DNA of 64,000 nt, from NCBI GenBank assembly GCA_963704905.1, contig CAVPHZ010000001.1, forward strand, positions 707,438-771,437. Reading direction: 5' to 3'. Origin of the DNA: Candidatus Chisholmbacteria bacterium. Its GTDB lineage: Bacteria; Patescibacteriota; Microgenomatia; UBA1400; Chisholmbacteraceae. Position 1 is the first letter of the stretch. Every line of letters starts with the position of its first letter. A model generated the notes under the pieces. It saw only the letters and a program-made list of their open reading frames with translations. It made no database searches and was not told where the DNA came from. Shown in pieces: positions 44,266-64,000 of the stretch. A program made the position numbers and the translations under genes.

Positions 44266-44294
44266 GGCAGTGGTTGTTTGTTTTCATAATCTTA

Positions 44295-44320
44295 CCCTTT
44301 AAAGGTTGAACCCTGCAAGG
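44295..44320. repeat. palindromic repeat, family B
   Basis: ccctttaaaggttgaaccctgcaagg, between the transposase start and the gene C stop. Confidence 0.55.
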
Positions 44321-47141: not shown

Positions 47142-49073
47142 TCAATTGGCCAATAAGCGATACGGTCCCGGCGCCCAGTTGTAGAGGGCTTGTACCTGTT
47201 TTGGGGAAAGCGCGTGTTTATAGACACGCAGGTCATCAATGTGGCCATCATAGTAGTTGGCTGGTGTTCCTGAAGAGTCCTCGGCTCCTACGACTAACTC
47301 TCCCGCATCATTTCCAATAGACGAGGGAATAGTGCCTGTGGTAGAGCTGGCTTGAAGCTCTCCATTGACAAAGAGCTTGACCGTTTGAGATGACGCATCA
47401 TAGACTCCGACCACATGTTGGAGGGTATTGGCTGAGAGCGGTGTTCCAGTTGTGGCTTCATAGTTTGCGGCAGCATCTATATACATTCGTAGATTGGCCC
47501 CTTCCATTGCAAGCAGATAACTTTCATTGGCACCATCCCATTTGCCAATGATATCCTGACTCCCGGTTGTATCATCAGGGTTTATCCAAGCTGAGAGTGT
47601 GAGACTTCCGGTTACTGAGAGATAGGCATTATCCACCACATCAAAGTACTGTGATGATCCATTGTGCTCAGACCCGTTGCCAAACTTTGCACCGGTGAAG
47701 GTAGTGGTCCCGGTATTGGTCAGTGTTGTTCCATTTCCACTCAGATCTGTTGCATTTCCACTTAATTCATCCATCTTCCAGTAGCCGATGAGGCCGTCGG
47801 AGAGCCAGGAATTGTCGGGGCCGAAGGCGGCCGCATAGCTCTGATTGTAGTCTGATTTAATTTCAGCTTCAGAACGAGCGTAGCGGTAGACTTTGATTTC
47901 ATCCAAAAACCCTTCCCATTGGCCACCTGCGCCATCACCATCCAGACCAATGTAGAAATCGTCGCTGTTTTCGAGCGTACCGGTGGCAGCGATGGACGTA
48001 TCTGAAGCGACCTCTACGCCGTCGATATACAGGTTGATTGAGGTGGTGCCGTTTTTTACTGCGGAAAAGTGATGCCATTTGCTATCGGCATAATTGGCAG
48101 TGCTGGTCGCGATGTCGGAATTCGAGCCATTGTCGATAGTAAATGATATATAGCCTAAATTTTCCATTCTCACTTCATAACCGATGCCAGTATTTCTCTT
48201 CGTGATGATGTTGTCGGCTCCGGCAGGCGTACTTGTGTGGCGGAACCAGCCTGAGAGGGTAAAGTCCGTATTCGCATCAAAGTCAAGCTGATCGTCGTCG
48301 GTCCTGGTTAAGTATTGCTGGGTGGGGATGTCAAACTCGAAGCGCAAACACTTTCCTGAGATACACTCATCTTCAGTACGCCAGGTGGCATTGGTTTTTG
48401 AAAGGTCGATACCGTGGCCGGTTGCGTCGCAAGCGTCGTTGGTTCCGCCAGAGCAGGTGTTGTCCACGCCTTCGTCGAACTTCCAGTAGGCGACGGGGCC
48501 TGGGCTTGCTTCCTCAGCTTCATAGGAACCATAGGCCGGAACTGTCGGGGTGGTGGTTGCCAGTTTTCTGGTAAAGACGTGGTCGACGGAGAAAGTGTTG
48601 GTTATATCAGTAGTTTCTAGTCTGACATATTGTGCAGAGTTTGGATACTGTGTTGAGTGTGTGGCGCTTGTGCCATCAACGCTCAACACTGCATTGCTTG
48701 CACCTATGGTGATGTCGTACTGATGATAGGAGGTGTCTTCGGCGACCGCTGCTGTTGAGGATTGGGTTGTTCCTCCGTTGGCTGTCTCTGTTTCATGGTT
48801 CCCGCCGGTAGTAGCATCGAAGAACATGGCGGCTGAGTCGTCAGTTGTGTAGCTCGTAGTGATGGTGGCGGTGTTACTGAACCCAAGCCTTCCGAGTGCG
48901 GCGGTGTTATTTTGGCTGGCTCGCATAGTGACAACCTCAACGTCGTTATCTCCTGGGCTGGCATCACCAAATGTGTCGGCTGAGGCAATGCCTTCCAGGT
49001 CGGTGGCGTCGTCGGTAGCAAGAGGGAGAGGTTCCCAGACCCAACAGAAGGAGCATCTTCTTGATAAGCCCAT
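47142..49073 (-). CDS. LamG-repeat fragment (gene C)
   Basis: 643 aa with GFLDEIKVYRYARSEAEIKSDYN, GHIDDLRVYKHALSPKQVQALYNWAPGP. The small ORFs 46559..46873 and 46922..47251 between this and 45057..46550 carry the same kind of motifs in shifted frames. Confidence 0.55.
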   Translation of the reverse strand: MGLSRRCSFCWVWEPLPLATDDATDLEGIASADTFGDASPGDNDVEVVTMRASQNNTAALGRLGFSNTATITTSYTTDDSAAMFFDATTGGNHETETANGGTTQSSTAAVAEDTSYHQYDITIGASNAVLSVDGTSATHSTQYPNSAQYVRLETTDITNTFSVDHVFTRKLATTTPTVPAYGSYEAEEASPGPVAYWKFDEGVDNTCSGGTNDACDATGHGIDLSKTNATWRTEDECISGKCLRFEFDIPTQQYLTRTDDDQLDFDANTDFTLSGWFRHTSTPAGADNIITKRNTGIGYEVRMENLGYISFTIDNGSNSDIATSTANYADSKWHHFSAVKNGTTSINLYIDGVEVASDTSIAATGTLENSDDFYIGLDGDGAGGQWEGFLDEIKVYRYARSEAEIKSDYNQSYAAAFGPDNSWLSDGLIGYWKMDELSGNATDLSGNGTTLTNTGTTTFTGAKFGNGSEHNGSSQYFDVVDNAYLSVTGSLTLSAWINPDDTTGSQDIIGKWDGANESYLLAMEGANLRMYIDAAANYEATTGTPLSANTLQHVVGVYDASSQTVKLFVNGELQASSTTGTIPSSIGNDAGELVVGAEDSSGTPANYYDGHIDDLRVYKHALSPKQVQALYNWAPGPYRLLAN

Positions 49074-49630
49074 TTAAATGCGTTTGGAGTTGATCCAACT
49101 GAGAAGGCATCGAAGAATTCAAATGTTTTTTCGCCGCTGCTGTAGGCATCCGCTGACGGATTGCCATAGTACATATAAATAGTAGTGTCCTCATCAATGG
49201 ATGGAACTTTTACCCAAATATCATAGTCGCTGGCTGAGCAATCGATGGTGTCGGCGGAGTTATTTTCATCTTCAATCCAGTAATCGAGAAGTTTGCCGCC
49301 TGTATCGGTGAAGCGGAGGTCGTCGCAGTCTGCTTGGAGTTTTCCGGCAGTATTTAAACCGTCGACATCGACCTCATCTAGTTCAACCTGAAAATCAGTG
49401 AGAGTTGTGGAGCCGGTGTAGGTGATAATAATGGCTTTTCTGTGTGACCAAGAATCGTTGTACCATGCAGCTGAGGCGCTATCAGAGTGATATAAACTAT
49501 ATAGTACTACTGGGATTAATATCAATAGAAGACCGAGGGATATCGGAAACAAACGTCTCCTCAAATTTTCAATTTTCAATTTTCGAATTTTCAGTGAATG
49601 GTTCATAATTTTCGAATTATCAATTATCAA
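48704..49630 (-). CDS. N-terminal part of giant gene C: signal-anchor TM + DUF2341-like module
   Basis: MIIDNSKIMNHSLKIRKLKIENLRRRLFPISLGLLLILIPVVLYSLYHS...AAWYNDSWSHRKAIIITY...DCDDLRFTDTGGKLL...IYMYYGNPSA. After about aa 190 the frame is spurious; the real continuation is 47142..49073. Confidence 0.6.
   Translation of the reverse strand: MIIDNSKIMNHSLKIRKLKIENLRRRLFPISLGLLLILIPVVLYSLYHSDSASAAWYNDSWSHRKAIIITYTGSTTLTDFQVELDEVDVDGLNTAGKLQADCDDLRFTDTGGKLLDYWIEDENNSADTIDCSASDYDIWVKVPSIDEDTTIYMYYGNPSADAYSSGEKTFEFFDAFSVGSTPNAFKWAYQEDAPSVGSGNLSLLLPTTPPTWKALPQPTHLVMPAQEITTLRLSLCEPAKITPPHSEGLGSVTPPPSLRATQLTTQPPCSSMLLPAGTMKQRQPTEEQPNPQQQRSPKTPPIISTTSP
49564..49592. repeat. heptanucleotide tandem repeat (AATTTTC)x3 plus an imperfect 4th copy in the 5' coding region of gene C
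   Basis: aattttc aattttc aattttc gaattttc on the + strand, i.e. (GAAAATT)n on the coding strand encoding ...LKIRKLKIENL. More degenerate copies extend to about 49660. Confidence 0.6.
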
Positions 49631-49660
49631 TTTTCAAACAATTATTCAATCTTCTAATTT

Positions 49661-50035
49661 TCAATCTTTATATTTTCTACTTGATTGGATAATCTTGCTA
49701 AAAATCAATAGAAGTTCCTGTCCTTCCTTCCAGAGTTTTTTAATTGTTTCCTTTTTACCTGGATTTGTTTTAGCAAGTAACCGCAGCCAGTGTTTTGTTT
49801 CTTTTATTTCCTTTTTGCAGATTGCAATTTTATGTACGAAATCTCTTTTACTTTCGGCTTCAGTGGCTTCTGCATAATTGGCACCGATAGATCCTCCTGA
49901 TCCGACAAGTTGTTCAATAATCCTTCTATTCAGAGGAGAGATACTTATTGTCTTAAGAGCGTCAATGATCTCCTCTGCGTATATTGCTGTTCGTTCCTCT
50001 AGATCGTATCGTGTTTTTTTTACTGCTTGAGTCAT
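49661..50035 (-). CDS. four-helix-bundle protein (23S rRNA intervening-sequence protein / Avd-like family)
   Basis: 124 aa with ...LVGSGGSIGANYAEATEAESKRDFVHKIAICKKEIKETKHWLRLL..., matching the four-helix-bundle family that includes DGR accessory protein Avd. Confidence 0.75.
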   Translation of the reverse strand: MTQAVKKTRYDLEERTAIYAEEIIDALKTISISPLNRRIIEQLVGSGGSIGANYAEATEAESKRDFVHKIAICKKEIKETKHWLRLLAKTNPGKKETIKKLWKEGQELLLIFSKIIQSSRKYKD

Positions 50036-50069: not shown

Positions 50070-53000
50070 TTAATTTTGCGACGCTGTTGCCACTACATCA
50101 ATAATCCACCAGTTGAATTTGAGGTCGGCGGTGGCTGGGACCGGGGTTTCGACCCAGAATCCCTGACCTTCGTCGATGAGCGTGACTCCCAGCACTACCT
50201 GGGTCAGGCCGGCTGGGGTGATAAAGATTTTTGAGTTTTTGGTTACCGCTGATGTCTGCACATAGATGCTGCGCTGGTTGGCCGGAAGGGTGGCGCTACC
50301 AATGGAAGGAGCCTGGACCGTCGGTTGGGCTGGCGGTTGCTGTGGCTGACTGCTACCCGTGGCTTCGGTAGTTACGGCCAGGACAGCGGACTGGGTGGCG
50401 ATGGTGAGCTTGCCGGCAACCAGGTCACCAAATCCGGCTTTGGGTGCAGTGACTTCTTTGGCGGTTATTCTGCCTTCAATACTGATATCTCCCTGCGGGG
50501 TCAGGACGATTTTGCCGTTGAAGGCATCGATGTTCCCAGCTAGCGGGAGACTTTGGAGTTTGAGGTCCTGTGCTAGGGCATTGATGCTGGTATCGATATC
50601 ATCGATCTGGAGGAAACCGACGTTTAAGGTACCGAGAATGGTCGTGTCTTCAAGCACGGCTTTTCCGAGCAGTCTGAGGTCATGATCGATCTGCAATTCA
50701 TCTCCGACTAATGCAATGCCGTCGATGTTGAGGTCTCCACCCGTTGGTGTGCCTGAGCTGGTGGCTGGCTGGGCCAGATCGAGGAACTGTTCGAAGAGCA
50801 CCAGGTTGGCTTCCAAATCTGCAATTCTTTGGTCATGTTCTGAGAGCTGACCGCTTTGGGTGGCGACTTCCGTTTGAAGTTCATCAGTAGTGGTTGCGAG
50901 ACCAGCGATATCGCTAGAATGTGTTTCGAGAATGTCTTCAATTGTCTGGATTTCATCAGTCTGATCAGTTGATTGCTGGGCGAGATTGTCGAGATCCTGC
51001 AATGCCTGGTCAAGGTTCAGTTCAATTTGTTCCTGCTGAGCGCTGATATCGCCAAAGGTGTTTATGGCGAACAAGACATCTGATTCGTGCCAGCCAGGAT
51101 TAATGAAGAGCATGATTTGGTCAATACCGCTTCCGGCAGTCCAGGATTCCATGGCTTGTCCGATGACGTGGCCGGAATCTATGGCTTTAGTCGCTTGGCC
51201 ATTTTCTGAGGATGTTAGGAAGTCACCAGCGAGGATGGATGGTGAGTCTGGGTCAACATGGACCGGTACTCGTCCGGCAAGGGCAACGAGGTAGGAGTTT
51301 TCTTCTCCGCCATCACCAAGAATAAGCCCTGGCTGGGTTGAAATGATGCCGATGACGGTTGGGTCGTATGGCTCTCGTGCTTTGTGGATTCGAACGGTTT
51401 CGTTTGGATCGATTTTAACAACATCTCCTTCTTCGAGTTCTTCGGTTGAAACGAAGTACTCAGCAAGGTCGAAGCCTGAACCGGTGTTATGGTTGTCGCT
51501 GTCGTCCATGAAGCTGATGAGGTTCCAGGTCGAGCTGTTTAAGGCGAAGGTGATGACGTCTCCATCTGCCAAGGTGATGTCGGTTGAGCCGCAGTTGATG
51601 CTGGTGGTTGGCGTGCCGTCGCACTCGATGGTGGAGTTGGCGTCATTGACCTCGACGATGATGATCTGTCCGTCGGTGCCGTCGGTGAAGTTGGTGTAGG
51701 CGGTGCCGGAGGTGTTGGCGGTTATCCAGTGGGAGCCTGCTGACACGTCCGGAGTCGCGCTATCTGCCGTGAGCGTTTGCTGAGCATCAAGTGAAAAGCC
51801 GCCTTGGACGATTGCTGTTCCTTCTGCCGAGAGATCAAAGACAATGTCGCCGGAGTTGTAGGTCTTTAAGGTTAGGTTGTTGCTTTCTGAAGCTTCGCCG
51901 ACGTCAATGGTGAAGGGTGCGTCGGTTTTGATGTTTGAACTGGTCTGATTGGTAAAGACCAAATCATAAGCCATGGAAACATCCCCGCTGGCGGTGAAGG
52001 CGTGGGGGACGGCTGAGGTGATGCCGGTTTGGCTAACAGTGAATACGTCTGATCCATTGTTATAGACGGCGAACAGGTTTCCGGTGACGGTGGCATTGCC
52101 GTTGACATCGATGACGAACAAGTCTGCATCGGTGGTGTCTGCTGATCCCGGATTCCAAGCAAACCGTCCCAAGGCTCCATTGAGTGACCCGTCTGCGAGT
52201 CCTGTAGAAGTGCTTTCGACATACATGGCATTCCCGGTTGTAAGGGCATCTACGGAAAGTTGAATCCCTTGGGCTGTTGTTAAGGCATCGGCTTGGATAT
52301 CGAGGACATCGGCGTCAATCTGGGCAGCGGTGATTTGCATAGCGATTTGGTCAGTATCGTCGGTATCAAGGAGGAAGCCTGTTACTGCGTCTGTTGAGCC
52401 AACGTCGACTTCAAAAAGTGCAGTTGTTGAGGTATTCCCAACGACCACGCCACCGTCCCCCTCGATTCTCATGCGCTCGTTCGTAGTGGCCTCCCCACCC
52501 GTAAAGAGACGGATATCGTCACCAGAACCTGCTGCAATGAGCGATAAGCCGTTGAGATTGGCGGAAGAACTGACATACCCTCGGTTCCCGTAGACGTTTG
52601 CCGTAGTAGTTGATCCTCCGACGCCGAAGCTTGCGATGTTATTTCCACCCCCATCGTTCATGGCTTGGAGGTTTGCAAAACCATTTGCGTGGGTGTTTTC
52701 TACTAAGGTTCCGATTGCTCCACCGTCGAGACTATCCCCGATATGCAGATAGGAGAGCGGAGTTGATTCATTTGTGGCTTCTGATCCGAGCTGGAAAGCT
52801 CCATATCCCGCACTAGCCTGTTTCAATGCAAATTGAAGTACGGAGCCGTTGGTATCATACCCCCTTAACCAATATGCGTTTTCGTCAGAATTGTCAGTGA
52901 ACTCGAGGTCGAGAAGGGAAGTGTTTCCGGCAAGGTCAGCGTCCGAATTATCAATCTTCATGACCGTTCCGGTGTCGAGTGTGCTTGCCAGAAAAACGTT

Positions 53001-55643
53001 ATCTTCTGCGTAGATTCCATAGTCCCAGTTAGTGCCTTGCTGGTAGATGGCGTATTCGGTAGAGGTGGTTTGTGCGGCAAGATCCTCGATGTGAAGCCCG
53101 TAGGTAGTTGATCCGGCTACTGAGGTCAGATTACTGAAATCTAGATTGAGCCCGGTGAGCGCGCCGGTTTGGGTCTCGGCTGAGTCAAAGGCGATGTCTA
53201 CTAAAGTTCCAGTCTCAAAGACATCGGCGCCGATGTCGATAGGTGTGGCTGAATCAGCACCGAAGAGGATATCGACGTTTCCAGACATATTGATTCCTGT
53301 ATCCCATCCAGATCCGATGTTGATCGCTGTTTCTGAAGCGCTGCTGCCGGCGGTTCCGTCGATGTTGATAGCATAGAGTGTTTCATCTCCAGATGGAGTG
53401 TTGACTGTGTCGAGATTGAGATGGAGGAGTGATTCAGTGACTGCGCCGGCACTGTTGCCAAATTCTCCGGCGATGTAGAGCGCGTCAACTCCATCAGTGA
53501 CAATACCGGTTGTGTTACCGGTGAGGTTGATGACTGCTGCATCGACGGTTGGGATGGTGTTGTTGGTTGTGTTTTCCAGCTCAAACTGCGTATCACCAGC
53601 GTCTCCGTATCTCAGACTCAAGTAGTCTGAGATGGATGATTTAGTGATGACTCCGCCTGAACTTGAGAATGCTCCAGCACTTCCACCACCCTGATCGGTT
53701 GAGGCATCCATGAAGGCAATGAGTTTCCAGTCTGTTCCATCGTACTGCCAGGTGGTGACGTCTCCGGTAGCCGTGACAATATCCGTTGTTCCTCCACTTA
53801 AACCTGAAGAGGTGACGTCGAAGGTGATATCTCCATTGCTTTCGATCACGACAAATTGTCCTGGAGCAAGAGAGTCCGTGCCGGCGTCAAAGTCTGTGAT
53901 GGTGAAACTGGTTGAGCCGGTGATCCAGTTGGTTCCACCTGAAATATCTGGGGTTGCGTCCGCATCTGCGAGCGTTTGCTGTGCGCCAAATCCTATACCA
54001 GCTTCCGCCAGGATTCCGATATCGAGATTTGTTCCTTGTTGATAGAGGCCATACTCAGTTGAATTTGTTTGGCTGGCCGGGTCGTTGATGTGTATGCCGT
54101 ACAGATTGTTTGTGCCATCGGGAGTAAGGTTAGTAAGGTCGATGTCTATACCGAGAATGTCACCGCCTGATTGAGATGTCGCCCCTCCCCAGTCGATGTT
54201 GAGGATGTCACCACTGGTATTGTTGATGTCTAGGTCCAATGCTGTCTGGTCAACATCGTCTTGATCAATGGTGAGGGCGATGAGGTCTGCGGTTCCGGTG
54301 TCGATTTCTACGAGACCGGCTGGAGCGATAACATCTGCACCGATTCCGAGTTGACCGGTAGTGGTGATGGTGAGGAAAGCATTGGTTCCCGGTGTAGTGC
54401 CGTCTCCGATTTGGAAGAAATCGTCGTCGTCCCCGCCAGCATCTTCATCGACACCAATCCAGAAATCGGTATCCGTGGCGGTGGCGACGTCAAAGATGAT
54501 GCTGGGGTCGGCGTCTTGAAGCATGACGTTGCCTCCCGATGTTCCTCCTGGAGTGAGGAGGATGTTTCCGTAGTTGTAGGTGTTTAGCGTGAGATTGTTA
54601 CTTTCAAAACTCTCTCCGACGTCAATGGTGAACGGTCCGTATGACTCGATTTGGCTGGCAGTTTGGTTAGTAAAGATCGCGTCATAGGAGAAGGAGACAT
54701 CTCCGGCAGCGGTAAAGGAGTGGGGGACTGCAGATTCTATCTGGGTTTGGGAAACGGTGAAGACATCTGAGCCGTTATCATAGACCGCAAACAGATTCCC
54801 CGTGACTGTTGCATTCCCATTGACATCAATCACAAACAGGTCAGCATCAGTGGTATCTGCTGATCCCGGGTTCCAGGCAAATCTTCCCAGGGCTCCATTG
54901 AGGGATCCATCTGCAAGTCCGGTTGAGGTTGATTCCACATAGAGGGCATTACCGGTGGTTAAACCATCTGCTGACATGGCAAATAAGCCTGAGGTTTGGA
55001 TGGCATCGGCAGTGATATCGATGAGGTTTTCAGTGGTCAGGGCTCCGGTCCAGTCAATGTCAAACAGACCGCCTCTGGTTCCGGCGCCATTGAGGTCGAA
55101 GGTGGCGACGGTGCCGGTGGTGTTGTTGTCATTGACCTCAATCATGCTGGCGGTACGGGCACTGGCCGTATTGCCGATGACCATGGCTTGGGAATCAACC
55201 GCAGTTGCACCCAAGTCGATGTTGATGACGTCTCCAGTTGCTGCTCCGGCGCCGACGTTGACATCGATAAGGTTGCTCGTCCAGGCTTGTGCTCCAGTGG
55301 TGATGTCGATGAGGTTTTCGTTGGTGAACGCTCCGGAGGTATCGATATCAAAGATCCCTCCTCTTGTTGATGAGCTGTCAATATCAACGGTGGCGACCGT
55401 GCCGGTGGTGTTGTTCTCGGTGATCTGTACGGCTGATTGGGTTCTGGCTCCGGCTGAGGTCGACATGACTAACCCTTGAGCGCCCGTAGCTGCGGCGCCC
55501 ATTGAAATGTTGATTGCGTCACCGGTGTCGGCAATGTTGCCGAAGTTGAGGTCAACTAAGTTTCCTGATGAAGCAGCTGGTGGAGGTGGTGATATCGATG
55601 ATATTTGAGGCAGGACCACCAGTGATATTGAAGTCCATGACAT
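50070..55643 (-). CDS. C-terminal 1857 aa of a giant repetitive T/G/D/N/A-rich beta-solenoid-like surface protein
   Basis: The first 390 aa are identical to an internal segment of 55552..63993, and its start overlaps that ORF by 92 nt through a 1-nt indel. It has repeated ...NLIDITTGAQAWTSN... and GDxINIDLGATAV units, and a C-terminal module (DLAEYFVSTEELEEGDVVKIDPNETVRIHKAREPYDPTVIGIIS...GRVPVHV) followed by a coiled coil and tail. Confidence 0.7.
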   Translation of the reverse strand: MSWTSISLVVLPQISSISPPPPAASSGNLVDLNFGNIADTGDAINISMGAAATGAQGLVMSTSAGARTQSAVQITENNTTGTVATVDIDSSSTRGGIFDIDTSGAFTNENLIDITTGAQAWTSNLIDVNVGAGAATGDVINIDLGATAVDSQAMVIGNTASARTASMIEVNDNNTTGTVATFDLNGAGTRGGLFDIDWTGALTTENLIDITADAIQTSGLFAMSADGLTTGNALYVESTSTGLADGSLNGALGRFAWNPGSADTTDADLFVIDVNGNATVTGNLFAVYDNGSDVFTVSQTQIESAVPHSFTAAGDVSFSYDAIFTNQTASQIESYGPFTIDVGESFESNNLTLNTYNYGNILLTPGGTSGGNVMLQDADPSIIFDVATATDTDFWIGVDEDAGGDDDDFFQIGDGTTPGTNAFLTITTTGQLGIGADVIAPAGLVEIDTGTADLIALTIDQDDVDQTALDLDINNTSGDILNIDWGGATSQSGGDILGIDIDLTNLTPDGTNNLYGIHINDPASQTNSTEYGLYQQGTNLDIGILAEAGIGFGAQQTLADADATPDISGGTNWITGSTSFTITDFDAGTDSLAPGQFVVIESNGDITFDVTSSGLSGGTTDIVTATGDVTTWQYDGTDWKLIAFMDASTDQGGGSAGAFSSSGGVITKSSISDYLSLRYGDAGDTQFELENTTNNTIPTVDAAVINLTGNTTGIVTDGVDALYIAGEFGNSAGAVTESLLHLNLDTVNTPSGDETLYAINIDGTAGSSASETAINIGSGWDTGINMSGNVDILFGADSATPIDIGADVFETGTLVDIAFDSAETQTGALTGLNLDFSNLTSVAGSTTYGLHIEDLAAQTTSTEYAIYQQGTNWDYGIYAEDNVFLASTLDTGTVMKIDNSDADLAGNTSLLDLEFTDNSDENAYWLRGYDTNGSVLQFALKQASAGYGAFQLGSEATNESTPLSYLHIGDSLDGGAIGTLVENTHANGFANLQAMNDGGGNNIASFGVGGSTTTANVYGNRGYVSSSANLNGLSLIAAGSGDDIRLFTGGEATTNERMRIEGDGGVVVGNTSTTALFEVDVGSTDAVTGFLLDTDDTDQIAMQITAAQIDADVLDIQADALTTAQGIQLSVDALTTGNAMYVESTSTGLADGSLNGALGRFAWNPGSADTTDADLFVIDVNGNATVTGNLFAVYNNGSDVFTVSQTGITSAVPHAFTASGDVSMAYDLVFTNQTSSNIKTDAPFTIDVGEASESNNLTLKTYNSGDIVFDLSAEGTAIVQGGFSLDAQQTLTADSATPDVSAGSHWITANTSGTAYTNFTDGTDGQIIIVEVNDANSTIECDGTPTTSINCGSTDITLADGDVITFALNSSTWNLISFMDDSDNHNTGSGFDLAEYFVSTEELEEGDVVKIDPNETVRIHKAREPYDPTVIGIISTQPGLILGDGGEENSYLVALAGRVPVHVDPDSPSILAGDFLTSSENGQATKAIDSGHVIGQAMESWTAGSGIDQIMLFINPGWHESDVLFAINTFGDISAQQEQIELNLDQALQDLDNLAQQSTDQTDEIQTIEDILETHSSDIAGLATTTDELQTEVATQSGQLSEHDQRIADLEANLVLFEQFLDLAQPATSSGTPTGGDLNIDGIALVGDELQIDHDLRLLGKAVLEDTTILGTLNVGFLQIDDIDTSINALAQDLKLQSLPLAGNIDAFNGKIVLTPQGDISIEGRITAKEVTAPKAGFGDLVAGKLTIATQSAVLAVTTEATGSSQPQQPPAQPTVQAPSIGSATLPANQRSIYVQTSAVTKNSKIFITPAGLTQVVLGVTLIDEGQGFWVETPVPATADLKFNWWIIDVVATASQN

Positions 55644-57540
55644 TGGCTGAAGCGTTTAGGGATCCGGAGGAATTAATCTGGAAGATGGCGGCATCGTCGG
55701 AGGCAGAACCGGTGCTAGCGGTGGTGATATCAATTAATGCGTCGGTTCTTGCCCCACCTGCGTCAGCGACAACAAAGGCGCCACCGGCGAGGTTGCTTGA
55801 ACCCATGCTGATATTGTGAATGTCTCCGGTTGAAGCAGCGGCGCCGACATTGACGTCAAATATGTTTCCAGTCCAAGCTTGGGCGCCGGTGGTGATGTCG
55901 AATATATTTCCGGTCCAGGCTGCAGAAGTGTCGATGTCCATGAGCCAGCCGGCAGTGTTGGAGATGGCTGCGTTACTGACAACAAAGTTTTGCAGGGCTA
56001 CGGCGTTGGCCGGTACAGCGACGTTGAAGATGTCTCCGGTTTGAGCGGCGTTCCCAGGATTGATGTCAATGTAGTTCCCGGTTGCGGCTTGGGCTCCCGA
56101 GGTGATATCGATGACGTTTGAAGCAAAGGTTCCCGTGGTGTTGATGTCATAGATGTTGGCAAGTGAATTCAGGTTTCCTGATGCATTGATTTGGAAAATC
56201 GCTGCGTTGTCAGAGGCGGAACCGGTACTGGCGGTGGTGATGTCGATGATGGCGTCAGTTCTGGCGCCGCCGGCAGCTGAGACGACGAAGGCTCCTCCAG
56301 CGAGGTTGTTGGTTCCCATGTTGACGTTTAGAGCATCACCGGTTGAGGCTGCGGCTCCGACGTTGATATCAATGAGGTTACTGGTCCAGGCTTGAGCTCC
56401 GGTGGTAATATCGATTAAGTGCTCGGTTCCGAAAGCTCCGGTGGTGTCGATGTCAAAGAGACTTCCTCTTGTGCCACCAATGTTAAAGTCAAATGTGGGT
56501 ACTGTGCCGCTAGTATTATTGTCGTTAATCTCGACCATGCTGGCTGTTCTGATGCTTGAGGAGTTGCTAATGACCAAGGCTTGGGCGTTGACTGCGGTTG
56601 CACCTAGGTCAAGGTTGATGAGGTCTCCGGTAGCCGCAACAGCACCGATGTTCAGATCGAGAAGATTGGATGTGAAGGCTGCGGAGGCGGTGATATCAAT
56701 TAGATGTTCGGTTCCCAAGGCTCCAGTTAGGTTGGCGTCTAGGAGCCCTCCTCTGGTTTCAGCAGAATCCCATTGAATGGTGGGGACGGTTCCGGTGGTG
56801 TTGTTTTCATTGATGTCTATGAGGGCTGTGGTTCTTACCCCTGAAACACTGGTCAAATCAAGGGCCTCACCGGCGACTGCGGAAGAGATCGCTGCTCCGG
56901 TGTCCCATCCGGAGCCGATATTGATGGCTGTTTCACTGGCTCCGGTTCCGGTAATACCATCCAGATTTATTCCATAGAACAAGTCCCCAGATCCGCCTCC
57001 AGCGATAGGGTCAAAGTTCACATGAAGTCCTGAGATTGTTCCATCCGCGACGATATTTCCAGCCTCCATGATAAGGTACAACCCATCAACTCCATCGGTA
57101 ACGATTCCAGTGTTGGTTGCGCCAGAAGAGAGATCAATAGAAATTGCATCGGCGGTGGGAATGACTTGGTTGGTTGAGCTGTCGATTTCAAACTGAATAT
57201 CTGCTGCATCACCATATTGGAGCCGGAGTCTATCAGCAGCGGTGAATTTATCAATGATGCCTCCACTGGTGGTAAATGGCTGACTGGCCCCGGTGGCCCA
57301 GCCGCAGTTGGTGAGGGCCGGATCACAGAGCAGATCATCTCCCCAGTACAAGGATCCGGTGGCCTGTCCCGGTCCGGTACCGAAGTTGATGACGTTGTTG
57401 GCAGAGGCATCCACATTCAAGCCAATGGTGGTGCCATTGACCGAGAGTCCGGTATTGAACAGGGCATCGTCTTCCACATAGAGGCCATAGTCCCAACCGG
57501 TGCCAGCCTGATAGATACCATATTCATCGCCGTCTTTTGC
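54450..57540. repeat. segmental duplication copy 1 (about 3.1 kb) within the giant gene
   Basis: Near-identical to 57950..60740 (offset 3502 bp, then 3198 bp after a 304-bp indel); e.g. ORF 54996..55370 = 58498..58872 and 57018..57416 = 60216..60614. Confidence 0.7.
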
Positions 57541-60500
57541 ACTTCCTGCGAGATTTTGAAGGTAGAGTCCGTAGATGTTGTCATCGGTGGTTTGATCGGT
57601 GGCATTGTTAGCGGCAAGGATATTTAACCCTGCAAAGGTGTCGGCGTCATTGCCGGTATCTCCGGTGACATTCAAGTCCGCAAAGATGGCATCAACGCCA
57701 TTTGTAAGTGTACCGACATCCACGATCAAGGCATCTACGGTCGTGTCGGTGGTATCGGCATCTATGGTTAGCGAGTCGGCAGCTCCCAGGTCAAAGTTTC
57801 CGGCGCCATCGACATCAAATCTGGCATCTGGGATGCTATCACCGATGCCAACGTTTCCTGAAGTGTCTACCGTGAGGAAGATGTTAGACCCCGGAGTGGT
57901 GCCATCACCGATGTGGAAGTAGTCATTGTCATCTCCGCTTGCATCTTCCTGTACGCCAAGCCAAAAGTCAGTATCTGTGGCGGTGGCGACGTCAAAGATG
58001 ATGCTGGGGTCGGCGTCACTGAGGACAACGTTACCGGCGCTGGTGCTGCCGGGAGTGAAGACGATGTCACCGGCGTTGTAGGTATTGAGGGTGAAATCGT
58101 TACTTTCAAAACTTTCGCCGACATCAATGGTGAACGGACCGTATGACTCGATTTGGGAGGCGGTTTGGTTGGTGAAGATTGCATCATAGGAGAAGGAGAC
58201 ATCTCCGGCAGCGGTAAAGGAGTGGGGGACTGCAGATTCTATCTGGGTTTGGGAAACGGTGAAGACATCTGAGCCGTTATCATAGACCGCAAACAGATTC
58301 CCCGTGACTGTTGCATTCCCATTGACATCAATCACAAACAGGTCAGCATCGGTGGTGTCTGCTGATCCCGGGTTCCAGGCAAATCTTCCCAGGGCTCCAT
58401 TGAGGGATCCATCTGCAAGTCCGGTTGAGGTTGATTCCACATAGAGGGCATTACCGGTGGTTAAACCATCTGCTGACATGGCAAATAAGCCTGAGGTTTG
58501 GATGGCATCGGCAGTGATATCGATGAGGTTTTCAGTGGTCAGGGCTCCGGTCCAGTCAATGTCAAACAGACCGCCTCTGGTTCCGGCGCCATTGAGGTCG
58601 AAGGTGGCGACGGTGCCGGTGGTGTTGTTGTCATTGACCTCAATCATGCTGGCGGTACGGGCACTGGCCGTATTGCCGATGACCATGGCTTGGGAATCAA
58701 CCGCAGTTGCACCCAAGTCGATGTTGATGACGTCTCCAGTTGCTGCTCCGGCGCCGACGTTGACATCGATAAGGTTGCTCGTCCAGGCTTGTGCTCCAGT
58801 GGTGATGTCGATGAGGTTTTCGTTGGTGAACGCTCCGGAGGTATCGATATCAAAGATCCCTCCTCTTGTTGATGAGCTGTCAATATCAACGGTGGCGACC
58901 GTGCCGGTAGTGTTGTTCTCGGTGATCTGTACGGCTGATTGGGTCCTGGCTCCGGCTGAGGTCGACATGACTAACCCTTGGGCAGCGGTTGCCGTAGCAC
59001 CCATAGAGATGTTGATGGCATCTCCGGTGTCGGCAATGTTGCCGAAGTTGAGGTCAACTAAGTTGCCTGAACTTGCAGCTGAAGAAGTGGTGATATCAAT
59101 GATATTTGAGGCCGGACCGCCGGTGATATTGAAGTCCATGACGTTGGCGAGAGAGTTGAGGGCGCCGGAGGAATTAATCTGGAAGATGGCGGCATCGTCG
59201 GAGGCAGATCCAGTACTGGCGGTGGTGATATCAATTAATGCATCGGTTCTTGCCCCACCTGCGTCAGCGATGACAAAGGCGCCACCGGCGAGGTTGCTTG
59301 AACCCATGCTGATATTGTGAATGTCTCCGGTTGAAGCCGCGGCGCCGACATTGACGTCAAATATGTTTCCAGTCCAAGCTTGGGCGCCGGTGGTGATGTC
59401 GAACATATTTCCGGTCCAGGCCGCAGAAGTGTCGATGTCCATGAGCCAGCCGGCGGTGTTCGAGATAGCTGCGTTACTGACAACAAAGTTTTGCAGGGCT
59501 ACGGCGTTGGCTGGAACTGCTACATTGAAGATGTCTCCGGTGGCTGCGGCATTTCCCGGATTAATATCAAAGATGTTGCTGGTCCAGGCTTGAGCTCCGG
59601 TGGTAATATCGATTAAGTGCTCGGTTCCGAAAGCTCCGGTGGTGTCGATGTCAAAGAGACTTCCTCTTGTGCCACCAATGTTAAAGTCAAATGTGGGTAC
59701 TGTGCCGCTAGTATTATTGTCGTTAATCTCGACCATGCTGGCTGTTCTGATGCTTGAGGAGTTGCTAATGACCAAGGCTTGGGCGTTGACTGCGGTTGCA
59801 CCTAGGTCAAGGTTGATGAGGTCTCCGGTAGCCGCAACAGCACCGATGTTCAGATCGAGAAGATTGGATGTGAAGGCTGCGGAGGCGGTGATATCAATTA
59901 GATGTTCGGTTCCCAAGGCTCCAGTTAGGTTGGCGTCTAGGAGCCCTCCTCTGGTTTCAGCAGAATCCCATTGAATGGTGGGGACGGTTCCGGTGGTGTT
60001 GTTTTCATTGATGTCTATGAGGGCTGTGGTTCTTACCCCTGAAACACTGGTCAAATCAAGGGCCTCACCGGCGACTGCGGAAGAGATCGCTGCTCCGGTG
60101 TCCCATCCGGAGCCGATATTGATGGCTGTTTCACTGGCTCCGGTTCCGGTAATACCATCCAGATTTATTCCATAGAACAAGTCCCCAGATCCGCCTCCAG
60201 CGATAGGGTCAAAGTTCACATGAAGTCCTGAGATTGTTCCATCCGCGACGATATTTCCAGCCTCCATGATAAGGTACAACCCATCAACTCCATCGGTAAC
60301 GATTCCAGTGTTGGTTGCGCCAGAAGAGAGATCAATAGAAATTGCATCGGCGGTGGGAATGACTTGGTTGGTTGAGCTGTCGATTTCAAACTGAATATCT
60401 GCTGCATCACCATATTGGAGCCGGAGTCTATCAGCAGCGGTGAATTTATCAATGATGCCTCCACTGGTGGTAAATGGCTGACTGGCCCCGGTGGCCCAGC

Positions 60501-63500
60501 CGCAGTTGGTGAGGGCCGGATCACAGAGCAGATCATCTCCCCAGTACAAGGATCCGGTGGCCTGTCCCGGTCCGGTACCGAAGTTGATGACGTTGTTGGC
60601 AGAGGCATCCACATTCAAGCCAATGGTGGTGCCATTGACCGAGAGTCCGGTATTGAACAGGGCATCGTCTTCCACATAGAGGCCATAGTCCCAACCGGTG
60701 CCAGCCTGATAGATACCATATTCATCGCCGGCATCGGGAGTGCCTGCCAAGTTCTGGACCCGGATGCCATAGACAATGTCATCATCGGTACTGGTCTGGG
60801 TGGCCAGGACATCCAAGCCAATCAAGGTATCCACCCCGGCATCGGTGATGGTTTCAATATCCAGATTGATGGCTTGCTGGTTGGTGGTACTATCCAAATC
60901 TACATTGATGATGCCGGTGGTGCCGGTATTATCCGTGGTGGCGGCATCGATGGTCAGGTCATTGCCGGCTCCCAGGACCAAGGCCAAGTCGGTGACATCA
61001 CTGATAGCGCCACTATTGATATCGATGCCATTGATGGTCTCATCGGTCACCGTGGTTATATCCCCAGTGGCGGCGACTTGGAAGACGTTTCCGGTGCCGG
61101 CGGTGAGGGTGCCGGAGACATCCAGGTTGCCGGTGGTGCCGCCATCGGCCAAGGTCATCAGGTCATTGCCGGCATCATCTTCCCAGGTAAAGGTACCCCC
61201 ATCGGCAATCTGAATTTGGGTGGTGGTGTCATTGAAGAAGAGGTTGGCATCCCAGCCGGAACCAATGGAGAGGGCCCGTTCCAGGACGGTGCCGTCGGCA
61301 GAGGCAAGGTTGGCGATATTGATGCCGCTTAAGACATCGGCATCCCCGGTGGCGGCTGAGGTGACATCCACATTGATGGCACTGACGGTATCGACATTGG
61401 CATCGGCTCCTAAGGTGAGGTTGAAGTCGGTCTGACTGCCATCATCGGTGATGGTGTTGGTCCAGCTGTGCAGCCCCGTCCAAGCAAAGTCGTAGGCTTC
61501 GTTGACGGCCACATCATTGGCATTGACGGTAATCCCGGTGCCGGCACCCACCGTGAAGGTGACATCACCATCGGCACCCACCAGCACATCATCGGCTCCG
61601 CCGGTCAAGCCATTGCCGGCCACCGCATCTCCCAAGAGTCGGATGGTGAGATCCAAGTTCTCATCGGTGTCATCGCCATTGACCAGGTCGGTGAGGACAT
61701 TGCCATCGGTACTGGTAAAGCGCAGGACATTGCTGTCGACAATGGCATAGGTATCGGTATCGTCATCGGCAATGGTCCAGGAGGTGAAGGCAGAGGCTCC
61801 GGTAGCCCAGCCGCAGTTGGTGAGGGCCGGATCACAGAGCAGATCATCTCCCCAGTACAAGGATCCGGTGGCCTGTCCCGGTCCGGTACCGAAGTTGATG
61901 ACGTTGTTGGCAGAGGCATCCACATTCAAGCCAATGGTGGTGCCATTGACCGAGAGTCCGGTATTGAACAGGGCATCGTCTTCCACATAGAGGCCATAGT
62001 CCCAACCGGTGCCAGCCTGATAGATACCATATTCATCGCCGGCATCGGGAGTGCCTGCCAAGTTCTGGACCCGGATGCCATAGACAATGTCATCATCGGT
62101 ACTGGTCTGGGTGGCCAGGACATCCAAGCCAATCAAGGTATCCACCCCGGCATCGGTGATGGTTTCAATATCCAGATTGATGGCTTGCTGGTTGGTGGTA
62201 CTATCCAAATCTACATTGATGATGCCGGTGGTGCCGGTATTATCCGTGGTGGCGGCATCGATGGTCAGGTCATTGCCGGCTCCCAGGACCAAGGCCAAGT
62301 CGGTGACATCACTGATAGCGCCACTATTGATATCGATGCCATTGATGGTCTCATCGGTCACCGTGGTTATATCCCCAGTGGCGGCGACTTGGAAGACGTT
62401 TCCGGTGCCGGCGGTGAGGGTGCCGGAGACATCCAGGTTGCCGGTGGTGCCGCCATCGGCCAAGGTCATCAGGTCATTGCCGGCATCATCTTCCCAGGTA
62501 AAGGTACCCCCATCGGCAATCTGAATTTGGGTGGTGGTGTCATTGAAGAAGAGGTTGGCATCCCAGCCGGAACCAATGGAGAGGGCCCGTTCCAGGACGG
62601 TGCCGTCGGCAGAGGCAAGGTTGGCGATATTGATGCCGCTTAAGACATCGGCATCCCCGGTGGCGGCTGAGGTGACATCCACATTGATGGCACTGACGGT
62701 ATCGACATTGGCATCGGCTCCTAAGGTGAGGTTGAAGTCGGTCTGACTGCCATCATCGGTGATGGTGTTGGTCCAGCTGTGCAGCCCCGTCCAAGCAAAG
62801 TCGTAGGCTTCGTTGACGGCCACATCATTGGCATTGACGGTAATCCCGGTGCCGGCACCCACCGTGAAGGTGACATCACCATCGGCACCCACCAGCACAT
62901 CATCGGCTCCGCCGGTCAAGCCATTGCCGGCCACCGCATCTCCCAAGAGTCGGATGGTGAGATCCAAGTTCTCATCGGTGTCATCGCCATTGACCAGGTC
63001 GGTGAGGACATTGCCATCGGTACTGGTAAAGCGCAGGACATTGCTGTCGACAATGGCATAGGTATCGGTATCGTCATCGGCAATGGTCCAGGAGGTGAAG
63101 GCAGAGGCTCCGGTAGCCCAGCCGCAGTTGGTGAGGGCCGGATCACAGAGCAGATCATCTCCCCAGTACAAGGATCCGGTGGCCTGTCCCGGTCCGGTAC
63201 CGAAGTTGATGACGTTGTTGGCAGAGGCATCCACATTCAAGCCAATGGTGGTGCCATTGACCGAGAGTCCGGTATTGAACAGGGCATCGTCTTCCACATA
63301 GAGGCCATAGTCCCAACCGGTGCCAGCCTGATAGATACCATATTCATCGCCGGCATCGGGAGTGCCTGCCAAGTTCTGGACCCGGATGCCATAGACAATG
63401 TCATCATCGGTACTGGTCTGGGTGGCCAGGACATCCAAGCCAATCAAGGTATCCACCCCGGCATCGGTGATGGTTTCAATATCCAGATTGATGGCTTGCT

Positions 63501-64000
63501 GGTTGGTGGTACTATCCAAATCTACATTGATGATGCCGGTGGTGCCGGTATTATCCGTGGTGGCGGCATCGATGGTCAGGTCATTGCCGGCTCCCAGGAC
63601 CAAGGCCAAGTCGGTGACATCACTGATAGCGCCACTATTGATATCGATGCCATTGATGGTCTCATCGGTCACCGTGGTTATATCCCCAGTGGCGGCGACT
63701 TGGAAGACGTTTCCGGTGCCGGCGGTGAGGGTGCCGGAGACATCCAGGTTGCCGGTGGTGCCGCCATCGGCCAAGGTCATCAGGTCATTGCCGGCATCAT
63801 CTTCCCAGGTAAAGGTACCCCCATCGGCAATCTGAATTTGGGTGGTGGTGTCATTGAAGAAGAGGTTGGCATCCCAGCCGGAACCAATGGAGAGGGCCCG
63901 TTCCAGGACGGTGCCGTCGGCAGAGGCAAGGTTGGCGATATTGATGCCGCTTAAGACATCGGCATCCCCGGTGGCGGCTGAGGTGACATCCACATTGATG
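55552..64000 (-). CDS. giant repetitive surface protein, N-terminal-ward 2813+ aa; the 5' end is probably beyond the window; the same gene as 50070..55643 apart from a frameshift
   Basis: A single ORF to the window edge with three 437-aa repeats identical at DNA level, then duplicated 1000-aa segments. The in-frame ATG at 63993 is probably not the true start. GC about 58%. Confidence 0.7.
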   Translation of the reverse strand, partial: INVDVTSAATGDADVLSGINIANLASADGTVLERALSIGSGWDANLFFNDTTTQIQIADGGTFTWEDDAGNDLMTLADGGTTGNLDVSGTLTAGTGNVFQVAATGDITTVTDETINGIDINSGAISDVTDLALVLGAGNDLTIDAATTDNTGTTGIINVDLDSTTNQQAINLDIETITDAGVDTLIGLDVLATQTSTDDDIVYGIRVQNLAGTPDAGDEYGIYQAGTGWDYGLYVEDDALFNTGLSVNGTTIGLNVDASANNVINFGTGPGQATGSLYWGDDLLCDPALTNCGWATGASAFTSWTIADDDTDTYAIVDSNVLRFTSTDGNVLTDLVNGDDTDENLDLTIRLLGDAVAGNGLTGGADDVLVGADGDVTFTVGAGTGITVNANDVAVNEAYDFAWTGLHSWTNTITDDGSQTDFNLTLGADANVDTVSAINVDVTSAATGDADVLSGINIANLASADGTVLERALSIGSGWDANLFFNDTTTQIQIADGGTFTWEDDAGNDLMTLADGGTTGNLDVSGTLTAGTGNVFQVAATGDITTVTDETINGIDINSGAISDVTDLALVLGAGNDLTIDAATTDNTGTTGIINVDLDSTTNQQAINLDIETITDAGVDTLIGLDVLATQTSTDDDIVYGIRVQNLAGTPDAGDEYGIYQAGTGWDYGLYVEDDALFNTGLSVNGTTIGLNVDASANNVINFGTGPGQATGSLYWGDDLLCDPALTNCGWATGASAFTSWTIADDDTDTYAIVDSNVLRFTSTDGNVLTDLVNGDDTDENLDLTIRLLGDAVAGNGLTGGADDVLVGADGDVTFTVGAGTGITVNANDVAVNEAYDFAWTGLHSWTNTITDDGSQTDFNLTLGADANVDTVSAINVDVTSAATGDADVLSGINIANLASADGTVLERALSIGSGWDANLFFNDTTTQIQIADGGTFTWEDDAGNDLMTLADGGTTGNLDVSGTLTAGTGNVFQVAATGDITTVTDETINGIDINSGAISDVTDLALVLGAGNDLTIDAATTDNTGTTGIINVDLDSTTNQQAINLDIETITDAGVDTLIGLDVLATQTSTDDDIVYGIRVQNLAGTPDAGDEYGIYQAGTGWDYGLYVEDDALFNTGLSVNGTTIGLNVDASANNVINFGTGPGQATGSLYWGDDLLCDPALTNCGWATGASQPFTTSGGIIDKFTAADRLRLQYGDAADIQFEIDSSTNQVIPTADAISIDLSSGATNTGIVTDGVDGLYLIMEAGNIVADGTISGLHVNFDPIAGGGSGDLFYGINLDGITGTGASETAINIGSGWDTGAAISSAVAGEALDLTSVSGVRTTALIDINENNTTGTVPTIQWDSAETRGGLLDANLTGALGTEHLIDITASAAFTSNLLDLNIGAVAATGDLINLDLGATAVNAQALVISNSSSIRTASMVEINDNNTSGTVPTFDFNIGGTRGSLFDIDTTGAFGTEHLIDITTGAQAWTSNIFDINPGNAAATGDIFNVAVPANAVALQNFVVSNAAISNTAGWLMDIDTSAAWTGNMFDITTGAQAWTGNIFDVNVGAAASTGDIHNISMGSSNLAGGAFVIADAGGARTDALIDITTASTGSASDDAAIFQINSSGALNSLANVMDFNITGGPASNIIDITTSSAASSGNLVDLNFGNIADTGDAINISMGATATAAQGLVMSTSAGARTQSAVQITENNTTGTVATVDIDSSSTRGGIFDIDTSGAFTNENLIDITTGAQAWTSNLIDVNVGAGAATGDVINIDLGATAVDSQAMVIGNTASARTASMIEVNDNNTTGTVATFDLNGAGTRGGLFDIDWTGALTTENLIDITADAIQTSGLFAMSADGLTTGNALYVESTSTGLADGSLNGALGRFAWNPGSADTTDADLFVIDVNGNATVTGNLFAVYDNGSDVFTVSQTQIESAVPHSFTAAGDVSFSYDAIFTNQTASQIESYGPFTIDVGESFESNDFTLNTYNAGDIVFTPGSTSAGNVVLSDADPSIIFDVATATDTDFWLGVQEDASGDDNDYFHIGDGTTPGSNIFLTVDTSGNVGIGDSIPDARFDVDGAGNFDLGAADSLTIDADTTDTTVDALIVDVGTLTNGVDAIFADLNVTGDTGNDADTFAGLNILAANNATDQTTDDNIYGLYLQNLAGSAKDGDEYGIYQAGTGWDYGLYVEDDALFNTGLSVNGTTIGLNVDASANNVINFGTGPGQATGSLYWGDDLLCDPALTNCGWATGASQPFTTSGGIIDKFTAADRLRLQYGDAADIQFEIDSSTNQVIPTADAISIDLSSGATNTGIVTDGVDGLYLIMEAGNIVADGTISGLHVNFDPIAGGGSGDLFYGINLDGITGTGASETAINIGSGWDTGAAISSAVAGEALDLTSVSGVRTTALIDINENNTTGTVPTIQWDSAETRGGLLDANLTGALGTEHLIDITASAAFTSNLLDLNIGAVAATGDLINLDLGATAVNAQALVISNSSSIRTASMVEINDNNTSGTVPTFDFNIGGTRGSLFDIDTTGAFGTEHLIDITTGAQAWTSNLIDINVGAAASTGDALNVNMGTNNLAGGAFVVSAAGGARTDAIIDITTASTGSASDNAAIFQINASGNLNSLANIYDINTTGTFASNVIDITSGAQAATGNYIDINPGNAAQTGDIFNVAVPANAVALQNFVVSNAAISNTAGWLMDIDTSAAWTGNIFDITTGAQAWTGNIFDVNVGAAASTGDIHNISMGSSNLAGGAFVVADAGGARTDALIDITTASTGSASDDAAIFQINSSGSLNASANVMDFNITGGPASNIIDITTSTSCFIRKLS
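57950..60740. repeat. segmental duplication copy 2
   Basis: See copy 1. It differs by single-nucleotide changes (e.g. TGA vs TGG at 55477/58979) and a 304-bp indel. Confidence 0.7.
60495..64000. repeat. perfect tandem repeat, unit 1311 bp, about 2.7 copies in the window (the array may continue past 64000)
   Basis: + strand ORFs 60776..61213 = 62087..62524 = 63398..63835 and 61468..62643 = 62779..63954 are identical in translation at an exact 1311-bp offset; the giant protein repeats VDVTSAATGDADVLSG...DTVSAIN three times. Confidence 0.8.

Follow-up and report, generated by a model that had tools for sequence, protein, structure and literature searches.

A giant, repeat-built gene for a probable surface protein of a Patescibacteria-type bacterium, with a predicted self-cleaving chaperone of the phage phi29 type

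The closest described counterpart of the gene considered here is gp12 of phage phi29, the pre-neck appendage protein, whose Peptidase_G2 domain (PF11962; PDB 3gqh and 3suc) has been described as an auto-proteolytically released chaperone (PMC4690869), and whose mature form, gp12*, ends at residue 691 (PMC6542822). Here, we report the computational analysis of a 64,000-nucleotide (nt) stretch of contig CAVPHZ010000001.1 from a Candidatus Chisholmbacteria bacterium, hereafter called the window. Its last 13.9 kb probably represent the 3′ part of a single giant gene of more than 4,642 codons, in a bacterium of the Patescibacteria or candidate phyla radiation (CPR) type, that would encode a mosaic, repeat-built extracellular protein; we give this reading a somewhat better than even chance, taken jointly with the mechanism proposed at the end. 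In essence, it would be a giant cellular surface protein with a predicted self-cleaving chaperone of the phi29 type, and no new principle is involved.

Several features of the C-terminal end of the window protein have their like in gp12. In both, the module is placed at the C-terminal end of a β-rich protein, and a D-x-A-E-Y-F sequence in the window protein stands at the position where phi29 gp12 is cleaved (between S691 and D692, with the Glu at E695). Moreover, while the two modules have the same fold by Foldseek, and the GxxS..PG and ALxGRVPV motifs can be aligned between them, their sequence identity is ~18%, and the window module lies below the Pfam cut-off. The ~45-residue insertion of phi29 is lacking in the window module, and the fragment predicted to be released is 466 amino acids (aa) long, with a coiled coil and an extra β-sandwich, as compared to 163 aa in phi29. 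More conspicuously, the carrier is a cellular protein of >4,600 aa, whereas gp12 is a virion protein of 854 aa.

A related arrangement is found in the Peptidase_S74 chaperones (K1F endosialidase, T5 pb1, the GA-1 appendage, and MYRF ICA), in which a C-terminal trimerisation and folding chaperone of elongated β-fibres is removed autoproteolytically (PMC4690869), as is also predicted here. However, the S74 fold is a different one with a Ser-Lys dyad, and our Pfam search gave no match to PF13884 in any of the giant-gene segments examined. In the case of MYRF, cleavage frees a DNA-binding domain, whereas the helix-turn-helix (HTH) domain in giant relatives of the window protein is across the membrane and thousands of residues away.

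Among giant repetitive bacterial adhesins are the RTX adhesins (LapA/SiiE/MpIBP). Other giant prokaryotic genes are those of Omnitrophota (bioRxiv 10.1101/2023.11.21.568195) and those for the giant surface proteins of nanohaloarchaea (PMC10266531). With these the window protein shares the likeness of a several-thousand-residue surface protein made of tandem near-identical modules, for which a role in cell–cell contact of small or episymbiotic cells is proposed. In contrast, Ig-like/BIg, RTX nonapeptide, type 1 secretion system (T1SS) signal, C39, and SecA-like domains were not detected in the window protein, and its phage-type C-terminal chaperone would represent a different route of folding and assembly.

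The C-terminal chaperone module

When a profile of the module, made from 11 homologues, was compared with the PDB, the best hit was 3gqh_A (E 2.4e-4), followed by 6qz9 and 3suc (phi29 pre-neck appendage). Here, we noticed that the sequence D-L-A-E-Y-F of the module (with D1392 and E1395) aligns to D-F-A-E-Y-F, which are residues 1-6 of the cleaved fragment in 3gqh_A, and that the uncleaved 'pre-mature' 3suc has a Gln at the Glu position of this cleavage motif. The Asp, Ala, and Glu of the motif are each at least 90% conserved in an alignment of 88 sequences. In fact, the Pfam Peptidase_G2 family is matched at E≤0.01 by 20 of these 88 aligned homologues, the best value being 9.1e-8, and a precomputed PF11962 assignment exists for several database relatives.

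The same relationship is suggested by structure prediction. An AlphaFold2 (AF2) model of window positions 50997-51758 had a pLDDT of 87, and its two top-ranked Foldseek hits in the PDB were 3suc (E 7e-5) and 3gqh_A (E 1e-4, TM 0.54 on the target). Matches in BFVD were to 'Preneck appendage protein' entries of uncultured phages (E 6e-9 to 4e-8, with a root-mean-square deviation of 2.2-2.5 Å). Judged by profile and model, the module belongs, as a divergent member, to the intramolecular chaperones of the G2 type, and, by analogy with phi29, its predicted cleavage would be between F1391 and D1392, with the Asp codon at 51468-51470. An NCBIfam scan returned nothing for the giant gene, and in the literature we found no paper that links pre-neck-appendage or G2 chaperones to CPR or DPANN.

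A sequence-only reading of this DNA that preceded our analysis had correctly pointed to a conserved-looking C-terminal module and a coiled coil, but had missed the identity of the former as a phi29 gp12/Peptidase_G2-type chaperone. It had also described the end of the protein as a short tail, which proved mistaken, as ~230 aa extend beyond the coiled coil and include a final β-sandwich with the family motif FNWWI.

Relatives and family architecture

At least 1,698 proteins (clusters) carry the module, and the few among them with a source name come mainly from Patescibacteria, others being from archaeal and further uncultured lineages. As for the giant gene and its C-terminus, those homologues that have a name belong to Uhrbacteria, Saccharibacteria, Woesebacteria, Roizmanbacteria, Levyibacteriota, and 'Patescibacteria group' metagenome-assembled genomes (MAGs). 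In GTDB representative genomes, relatives were found at 36-67% identity over short best segments, and the closest JGI relative of the C-terminus is 48% identical.

The best relative of the whole is a 3,881-aa protein (P0146), with 60% identity over 17 stretches, from locus L020 on CP065002.1, a 1.27-Mb contig of GCA_016700095.1. At positions 355727-387372 of this contig, P0146 is followed by an overlapping 2,018-aa protein (P0149), the two adding up to ~5,900 aa, and then by a DUF2341/LamG gene; this synteny of giant gene and DUF2341/LamG is common to the window and L020, and L020 adjoins ATP synthase genes. P0146 starts with a MerR/HTH_17 domain and then a hydrophobic segment, and contains near-identical tandem repeats, while a body module that we call Y is found in P0149, along with a pair of G2-like modules and a terminal FNWWI. 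Taken as a pair, they resemble the window protein in their unit-like repeats (over which the 60% identity is found), in having long near-identical tandem repeats, module Y, a G2-like chaperone, the FNWWI end, and the downstream DUF2341/LamG gene, and also in that one of their repeats has a 1-nt indel that splits the frame. They differ in the repeat unit (954 nt versus 1311 nt), in the presence of two chaperone modules, and in an N-terminus that is visible, with its MerR HTH and transmembrane (TM) segment.

Five other relatives are uninterrupted. An N-terminal MerR-type HTH is found in L002 (5,744 aa), L003 (4,985 aa), and L014 (3,693 aa), the C-terminal ends of which are, respectively, FNWLI with no chaperone module detected, a GADLAEYF module with FNWWI, and a G2-like variant with a coiled coil and FDWWI. 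The remaining two are L006 (4,918 aa), with another N-terminus, and L007 (2,847 aa), with only a signal-anchor. Overall, the chaperone module was found in L020, L003, and L014, and the FNWWI-type C-terminal motif is kept in P0001-P0004, P0149, L002, L003, and L014. The C-terminal order of the window gene is that of the family, namely module Y, β-sandwich, G2-like chaperone, helix, and a β-sandwich ending in FNWWI. As read from these sequences, the family plan is (HTH)-TM, a variable giant repetitive body, module Y, a β-sandwich, the G2-type chaperone, a helix, and the final β-sandwich.

With the contig of a 97.6%-identical sister strain, L001 (ENA ERZ25039603), the last 745 aa of the protein are shared at 95%, and the sequence upstream of them is wholly different (L001 193-1195 versus window 52193-53017); in addition, the linker preceding the last sandwich differs from that of the window protein by an 8-aa indel. 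This comparison suggests that strains swap the fibre body and retain the folding end.

Several peculiarities were seen among the relatives. The MerR/HTH_17-type HTH stands at the start of four of the six full-length relatives (L020 10001-10400, L002 2279-2700, L003 2723-3172, and L014 7343-7792), P0146 being the one of these four in which the membrane segment after the HTH was examined. In these relatives, a cytoplasmic DNA-binding domain is fused to a presumably extracellular protein of thousands of residues, and our literature search found no description of such an HTH fusion to a giant extracellular protein. Two relatives of the repeat unit have inserted Intein/Hint splicing domains, P0158 (aa 604-875) and P0147 (aa 28-83), and the N-terminus of P0158 is Phage_int_SAM_1-like. 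Moreover, two consecutive G2-like chaperone modules occur in both P0149 (aa 1316-1467 and 1585-1723) and P0157 (aa 1902-2042 and 2179-2306), with the first module of P0149 having the variant motif D-I-A-E-N-F.

Repeats, reading frame, and rival explanations

Two long open reading frames (ORFs) make up the region, 55552..63993 (2,813 aa, leaving the window) and 50070..55643 (1,857 aa). The sequence-only reading had given these coordinates and their overlap of 92 nt correctly, though without stating that both are on the minus strand. Its proposal that one extra nucleotide splits a protein of more than 4640 aa also holds, since removing one base computationally yields an in-window reading frame of 4,642 codons; downstream of the extra nucleotide, the frame is +1 relative to the upstream frame, the stop of which is at 55552-55554. 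While the T/G/A/D-rich composition described earlier was likewise found, the GC content put at ~58% is an overstatement. It is 52-57% in the giant gene, with 57% reached only in the last 2 kb, and this is indeed above the 40-50% elsewhere in the window. GC at third codon positions (GC3) is 0.56-0.61 in the giant gene versus 0.38-0.50 in other window genes, with its maximum in the identical repeats, and could reflect GC-biased gene conversion or a foreign origin.

The identical 1311-bp units that had been placed from ~60495 onward were borne out. At a lag of 1311 nt, there were 0 mismatches across the 3,507 nt from 60494 to the window end, and, as 1311 nt are exactly 437 codons, the unit stays in frame; the array leaves the window, with 2.68 units inside it. 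Searched among 1.84 billion cluster representatives, the 437-aa unit is rare, with 140 relatives at E≤1e-3. By self-BLAST, we also recovered the segmental duplication earlier put at ~3 kb (~3.1-3.5 kb), in which 54388-56112 and 57890-59613 are 92% identical, and 56363-57532 and 59561-60730 are 99.7% identical. Within the latter is a 1,152-nt block of 100% identity (56381-57532 = 59579-60730), and the 4 mismatches are all at the edge, in 56365-56380 (2 synonymous and 2 missense). The copies are offset by 3502, 3501, and 3198 nt, from which it follows that the 304-bp indel noted before is actually one 303-nt (101-codon) repeat in copy A plus the 1-nt frameshift. A TGA/TGG single-nucleotide polymorphism (SNP) said to separate the copies is absent from the near-identical block, to which the search was confined, and with both ORFs open there is no such SNP in frame.

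Tile-against-self comparison showed the body to be a mosaic, with, in gene order, the 437-aa unit, module X, R repeats, module Y, and two Phage_depo_C-like sandwiches. Modules X and Y (the latter …ALYVESTSTG…SAVPHxFTAxGDV…FTNQT…ESNNLTLxTYN) each occur three times in the giant gene, and the R repeats, of ~95-101 aa, number six to seven per duplication copy. The 100%/92% mosaic in the 3-kb duplication and the raised GC3 would fit ongoing gene conversion. The sequence-only reading had proposed β-solenoid-like repeats. In a Pfam search of the giant gene for RTX or solenoid repeats, there was no HemolysinCabind, GGxGxD nonapeptide, β-helix, or pectate-lyase match.

Regarding the split frame, the sequences compared here indicate that it is probably an uncorrected long-read assembly indel and not biology. 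Between copies A and B, codon differences are 52 synonymous to 18 nonsynonymous downstream of the shift, in the shifted frame, and 31 to 10 upstream of it, and these mostly synonymous changes imply that the downstream part evolved as coding sequence. With its 3.5 kb of perfect 1.3-kb repeats, the window must, we infer, derive from long reads, and repeats are where short-read polishing fails. A minus-strand frame map of the neighbouring LamG cluster shows long open segments that change frame at least 12 times. At one such break, 49022 (TT to T), a single nucleotide is missing as compared to L001, in which the ORF is unbroken at this place; in turn, a private extra T is found elsewhere in this gene of L001 (L001:5864), and in a Logan contig (run ERR12037370) an ORF of at least 794 aa spans both sites without interruption. 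The CP065002.1 homologue, too, is split into its 3,881 and 2,018 aa by an extra T (CCCTTACTTT to CCCTTTACTTT, L020 21572-21600), which is found in one of nine otherwise identical repeat segments, and all five relatives with short-read-assembler contig names (L002, L003, L006, L007, and L014, their short-read status being judged from such names) are uninterrupted. A real frameshift would instead mean a recently inactivated pseudogene, or a gene split into an N-terminal product of 2,800+ aa without chaperone and a non-exported 1,857-aa ORF. What speaks for it is that the extra nucleotide is outside a homopolymer and has local substitutions around it, a setting less often seen with a simple nanopore error, and that no independent sequence of the junction was found, the best match of the repaired 441-aa query being 39% identical and an exact look-up of one of the ORFs giving no record. 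Moreover, there is 1 frame break in 13.9 kb of the giant gene versus ~1 per 1.5 kb in the LamG cluster, so either errors are not uniform or the LamG breaks are real, and the latter could reflect genuine decay of surface-protein genes. However, the synonymous excess in the shifted frame speaks against decay, the neighbouring break at 49022 is demonstrably assembly-specific, and, given also the one-in-nine indel of CP065002.1 and the five intact relatives, we consider a real frameshift unlikely. Because a single 1-nt indel within a repeat is found in each of two related giant genes, one might also think of full-length expression as being controlled by phase variation or by programmed +1 ribosomal frameshifting. 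Yet neither site has a slippery heptamer, a stop/rare-codon +1 context, a long homopolymer, or a simple sequence repeat (SSR), there being no homopolymer run at 55576-55584; the two sites are non-homologous, and the five relatives named above are without a shift. With slippery or SSR context absent, programmed frameshifting was rejected, and its probability is close to nil.

As for the repeats, their copy number, their 100% identity, or both could in part be products of consensus polishing or of a mis-resolved repeat. Such an origin would agree with identity being 100% over 3.5 kb and over another 1,152 nt while adjoining duplicated sequence is at 92%, with the indel errors seen elsewhere in the window, and with an array that extends, uncountable, past the window; in any event, the exact identity may have been sharpened by consensus polishing. 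However, the length of the unit, exactly 437 codons, preserves the frame, and the orthologous gene in the closed, independently assembled CP065002.1 genome has near-identical 954-nt tandem repeats with sparse copy-specific SNPs, for which reason we take the phenomenon as real. While a partial contribution of assembly is thus possible, if doubtful, the long near-identical in-frame tandem repeats themselves are, on this comparison, real and the outcome of recent expansion or of concerted evolution by recombination. The assembly caution voiced in the sequence-only reading was appropriate, with the evidence leaning to a long-read indel for the frameshift and to a genuine family trait for the repeats. 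Whether the gene is cellular at all may be asked because an architecture of Phage_depo_C, G2-type chaperone, and K1-lyase_C is typical of phage fibres and depolymerases, and because GC3 is above that of the neighbouring genes, both of which would suit a phage or prophage gene for a tail fibre or tailspike. Against this, the window is bacterial chromosome, with ribosomal protein S1, Rho, three tRNA-Ala genes, and LamG genes flanking; no phage genes are nearby, and PHROGs gave essentially nothing for the window region and no match for the neighbours of the giant gene. When 40-64 kb were compared with 50,697 phage genomes by megablast, there was no match, and at the protein level a tblastn of the module against phages had weak partial matches, to PA5oct-like jumbo phages. 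Furthermore, the DUF2341/LamG synteny is kept in another Patescibacteria genome beside ATP synthase genes, and relatives have an HTH and TM N-terminus, not a virion-attachment domain. Prophage origin was rejected on this context, and we regard it as very improbable. Our preferred reading, a giant cellular surface protein with a phi29-type chaperone, has its own difficulties. On the module (window 50997-51758), Pfam PF11962 Peptidase_G2 scores 19.1 bits (E 9.5e-4), below the gathering threshold of 25 bits, and another Pfam scan gave 14.2 bits. The body (unit, X, R, and Y) is without a match in Pfam, NCBIfam, PHROGs, and PDB sequences, and no significant match was obtained when PDB sequences were searched with the unit, with the middle region, or with the post-chaperone tail. 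Of the structure predictions that had been suggested earlier, that of the C-terminal module succeeded, but the AF2 model of the 437-aa unit (38 homologues) is unreliable, with a pLDDT of 58. As the body has no structure or family match, the trimeric fibre and adhesion are drawn by analogy, and, as the protein's own N-terminus is beyond the window, its membrane anchor is taken from relatives. These points, along with the position of the extra nucleotide, the missing junction sequence, the unequal break density, and the possible polishing of the repeats, weigh against the preferred reading.

Surroundings and proposed role

The coordinates of the features in and beside the giant gene are compiled in Table 1. 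Elsewhere, the window also encodes an O-antigen-ligase/TPR-like membrane protein. The tRNA-Ala genes (25316-25391, 27453-27527, and 28526-28597) lie within 3.3 kb on the minus strand, two with GGC anticodons and one with CGC. Interspersed in the LamG cluster are two paralogous REP-associated-tyrosine-transposase/IS200-like ORFs (43585-44265 and 31063-31938), and short AATTTTC heptamer and 27-nt tandem repeats are found at 49564-49664, in the intergenic stretch that separates the first LamG gene from the four-helix-bundle gene. A stretch of ~4 kb (8450-12600) has no ORF of >181 aa and no Pfam or Rfam match, and could represent further frame-broken genes or non-coding sequence.

Table 1. Features of the giant gene and its immediate neighbours, in window coordinates.
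Feature	Position	Strand	Remarks
Giant gene, in-window part	50070..64000	minus	enters at 64000, with 5′ end beyond; stop TAA 50070-50072
Tandem array of 1311-nt (437-codon) unit	60494..64000	minus	2.68 copies in window, continues past window edge; one in-frame unit 62689-63999
Segmental duplication copy B (upstream copy, frame intact)	57890..60730	minus	module X, R repeats 58480-60123, module Y
Partial unit U′	57283-57789	minus	75% copy of 437-aa unit, placed between duplication copies
Segmental duplication copy A (downstream copy)	54388..57532	minus	extra 303-nt (101-codon) R repeat around 56113-56362
Single extra nucleotide, copy A	55576..55584	minus	TCCACCAGC versus paralog TCT-TCAGC in copy B
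Repaired junction peptide	across 55576..55584	minus	NIIDITTS-x-AASSGNLVDLNF
First Phage_depo_C-like β-sandwich	53679..54011	minus	weak match, E 0.03; 41% paralogy to 51525-51743 region
Module Y, third copy	51837..52532	minus	…ALYVESTSTG…SAVPHAFTASGDV…FTNQT…ESNNLTLKTYN; common to relatives P0001, P0003, P0004, P0149, L014
Phage_depo_C β-sandwich	51525..51743	minus	directly upstream of chaperone; 33.7 bits versus cut-off 25
Putative autocleavage module, phi29 gp12-type (Peptidase_G2-like) intramolecular chaperone	51072..51470	minus	from profile, AF2, and Foldseek
Predicted long α-helix/coiled coil after chaperone	50769..51080	minus	heptads; helix from model residue 227, first 27 residues modelled
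C-terminal β-sandwich, K1-lyase_C-like	50148..50306	minus	ends in FNWWI; 25.4 bits versus cut-off 27 (P0001: 29)
TIGR02436 'four-helix-bundle' (23S rRNA IVS) protein gene	49661-50035		directly downstream of giant gene
DUF2341/LamG ('TafC-like') surface-protein gene cluster	32030-49630	minus	17 kb, downstream of giant gene

As in phi29 gp12 and further fibre proteins with intramolecular chaperones (PMC4690869), the chaperone and coiled coil at the C-terminus would, we propose by analogy, bring three chains together. From this end, the β-rich shaft would fold onward into a long trimeric fibre on the cell surface. Asp1392 and Glu1395 would cleave the chain between the Phe and Asp of FDLAEYF, releasing the 466-aa fragment with the chaperone, coiled coil, and β-sandwich, and the mature C-terminal end would become the distal, target-binding tip. 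That this end is the distal one is suggested by the N-terminus in relatives, which is an HTH and membrane anchor. The protein may serve, together with the neighbouring DUF2341/LamG surface proteins, in attaching to a host or partner cell or in recognising it, while homologous recombination or gene conversion would generate the in-frame 1311-nt units and the 3-kb duplication, and so tune the length and composition of the fibre. For the trimeric fibre, the surface location, the autocleavage, and the adhesion role, this is the most likely reading by analogy.

A more far-reaching view would be that the family is a domesticated phage tail fibre, anchored in the membrane by way of an N-terminal cytoplasmic MerR-type DNA-binding domain in bacteria that are ultrasmall and episymbiotic, such that a single polypeptide links a host-recognising extracellular fibre of several thousand residues to the cytoplasm. 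Fibre length would then be varied by recombination of identical 1.3-kb units, the adhesin could double as a regulator or contact sensor, and the 1-nt indels in the two genomes could be real on/off variants. We consider this quite improbable.

Patescibacteria (CPR) live attached to other cells, and, to our knowledge, almost none of their surface adhesin-like proteins has been characterised. In a Saccharibacterium, the sole species tested genetically, surface proteins that are predicted adhesins are among the functions required for viability (PMC11665869). Moreover, in long-read MAGs, single-base indels that short-read polishing does not fix would split giant repeat genes such as this one, which may then be under-counted or annotated as two proteins. 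The large and mostly unannotated family to which the window protein belongs would thus use a predicted self-cleaving folding chaperone of the phi29 type, and, given this chaperone, its members may be regarded as trimers resembling phage fibres, in which the site of maturation can be predicted and the C-terminus would be distal and probably bind the target.

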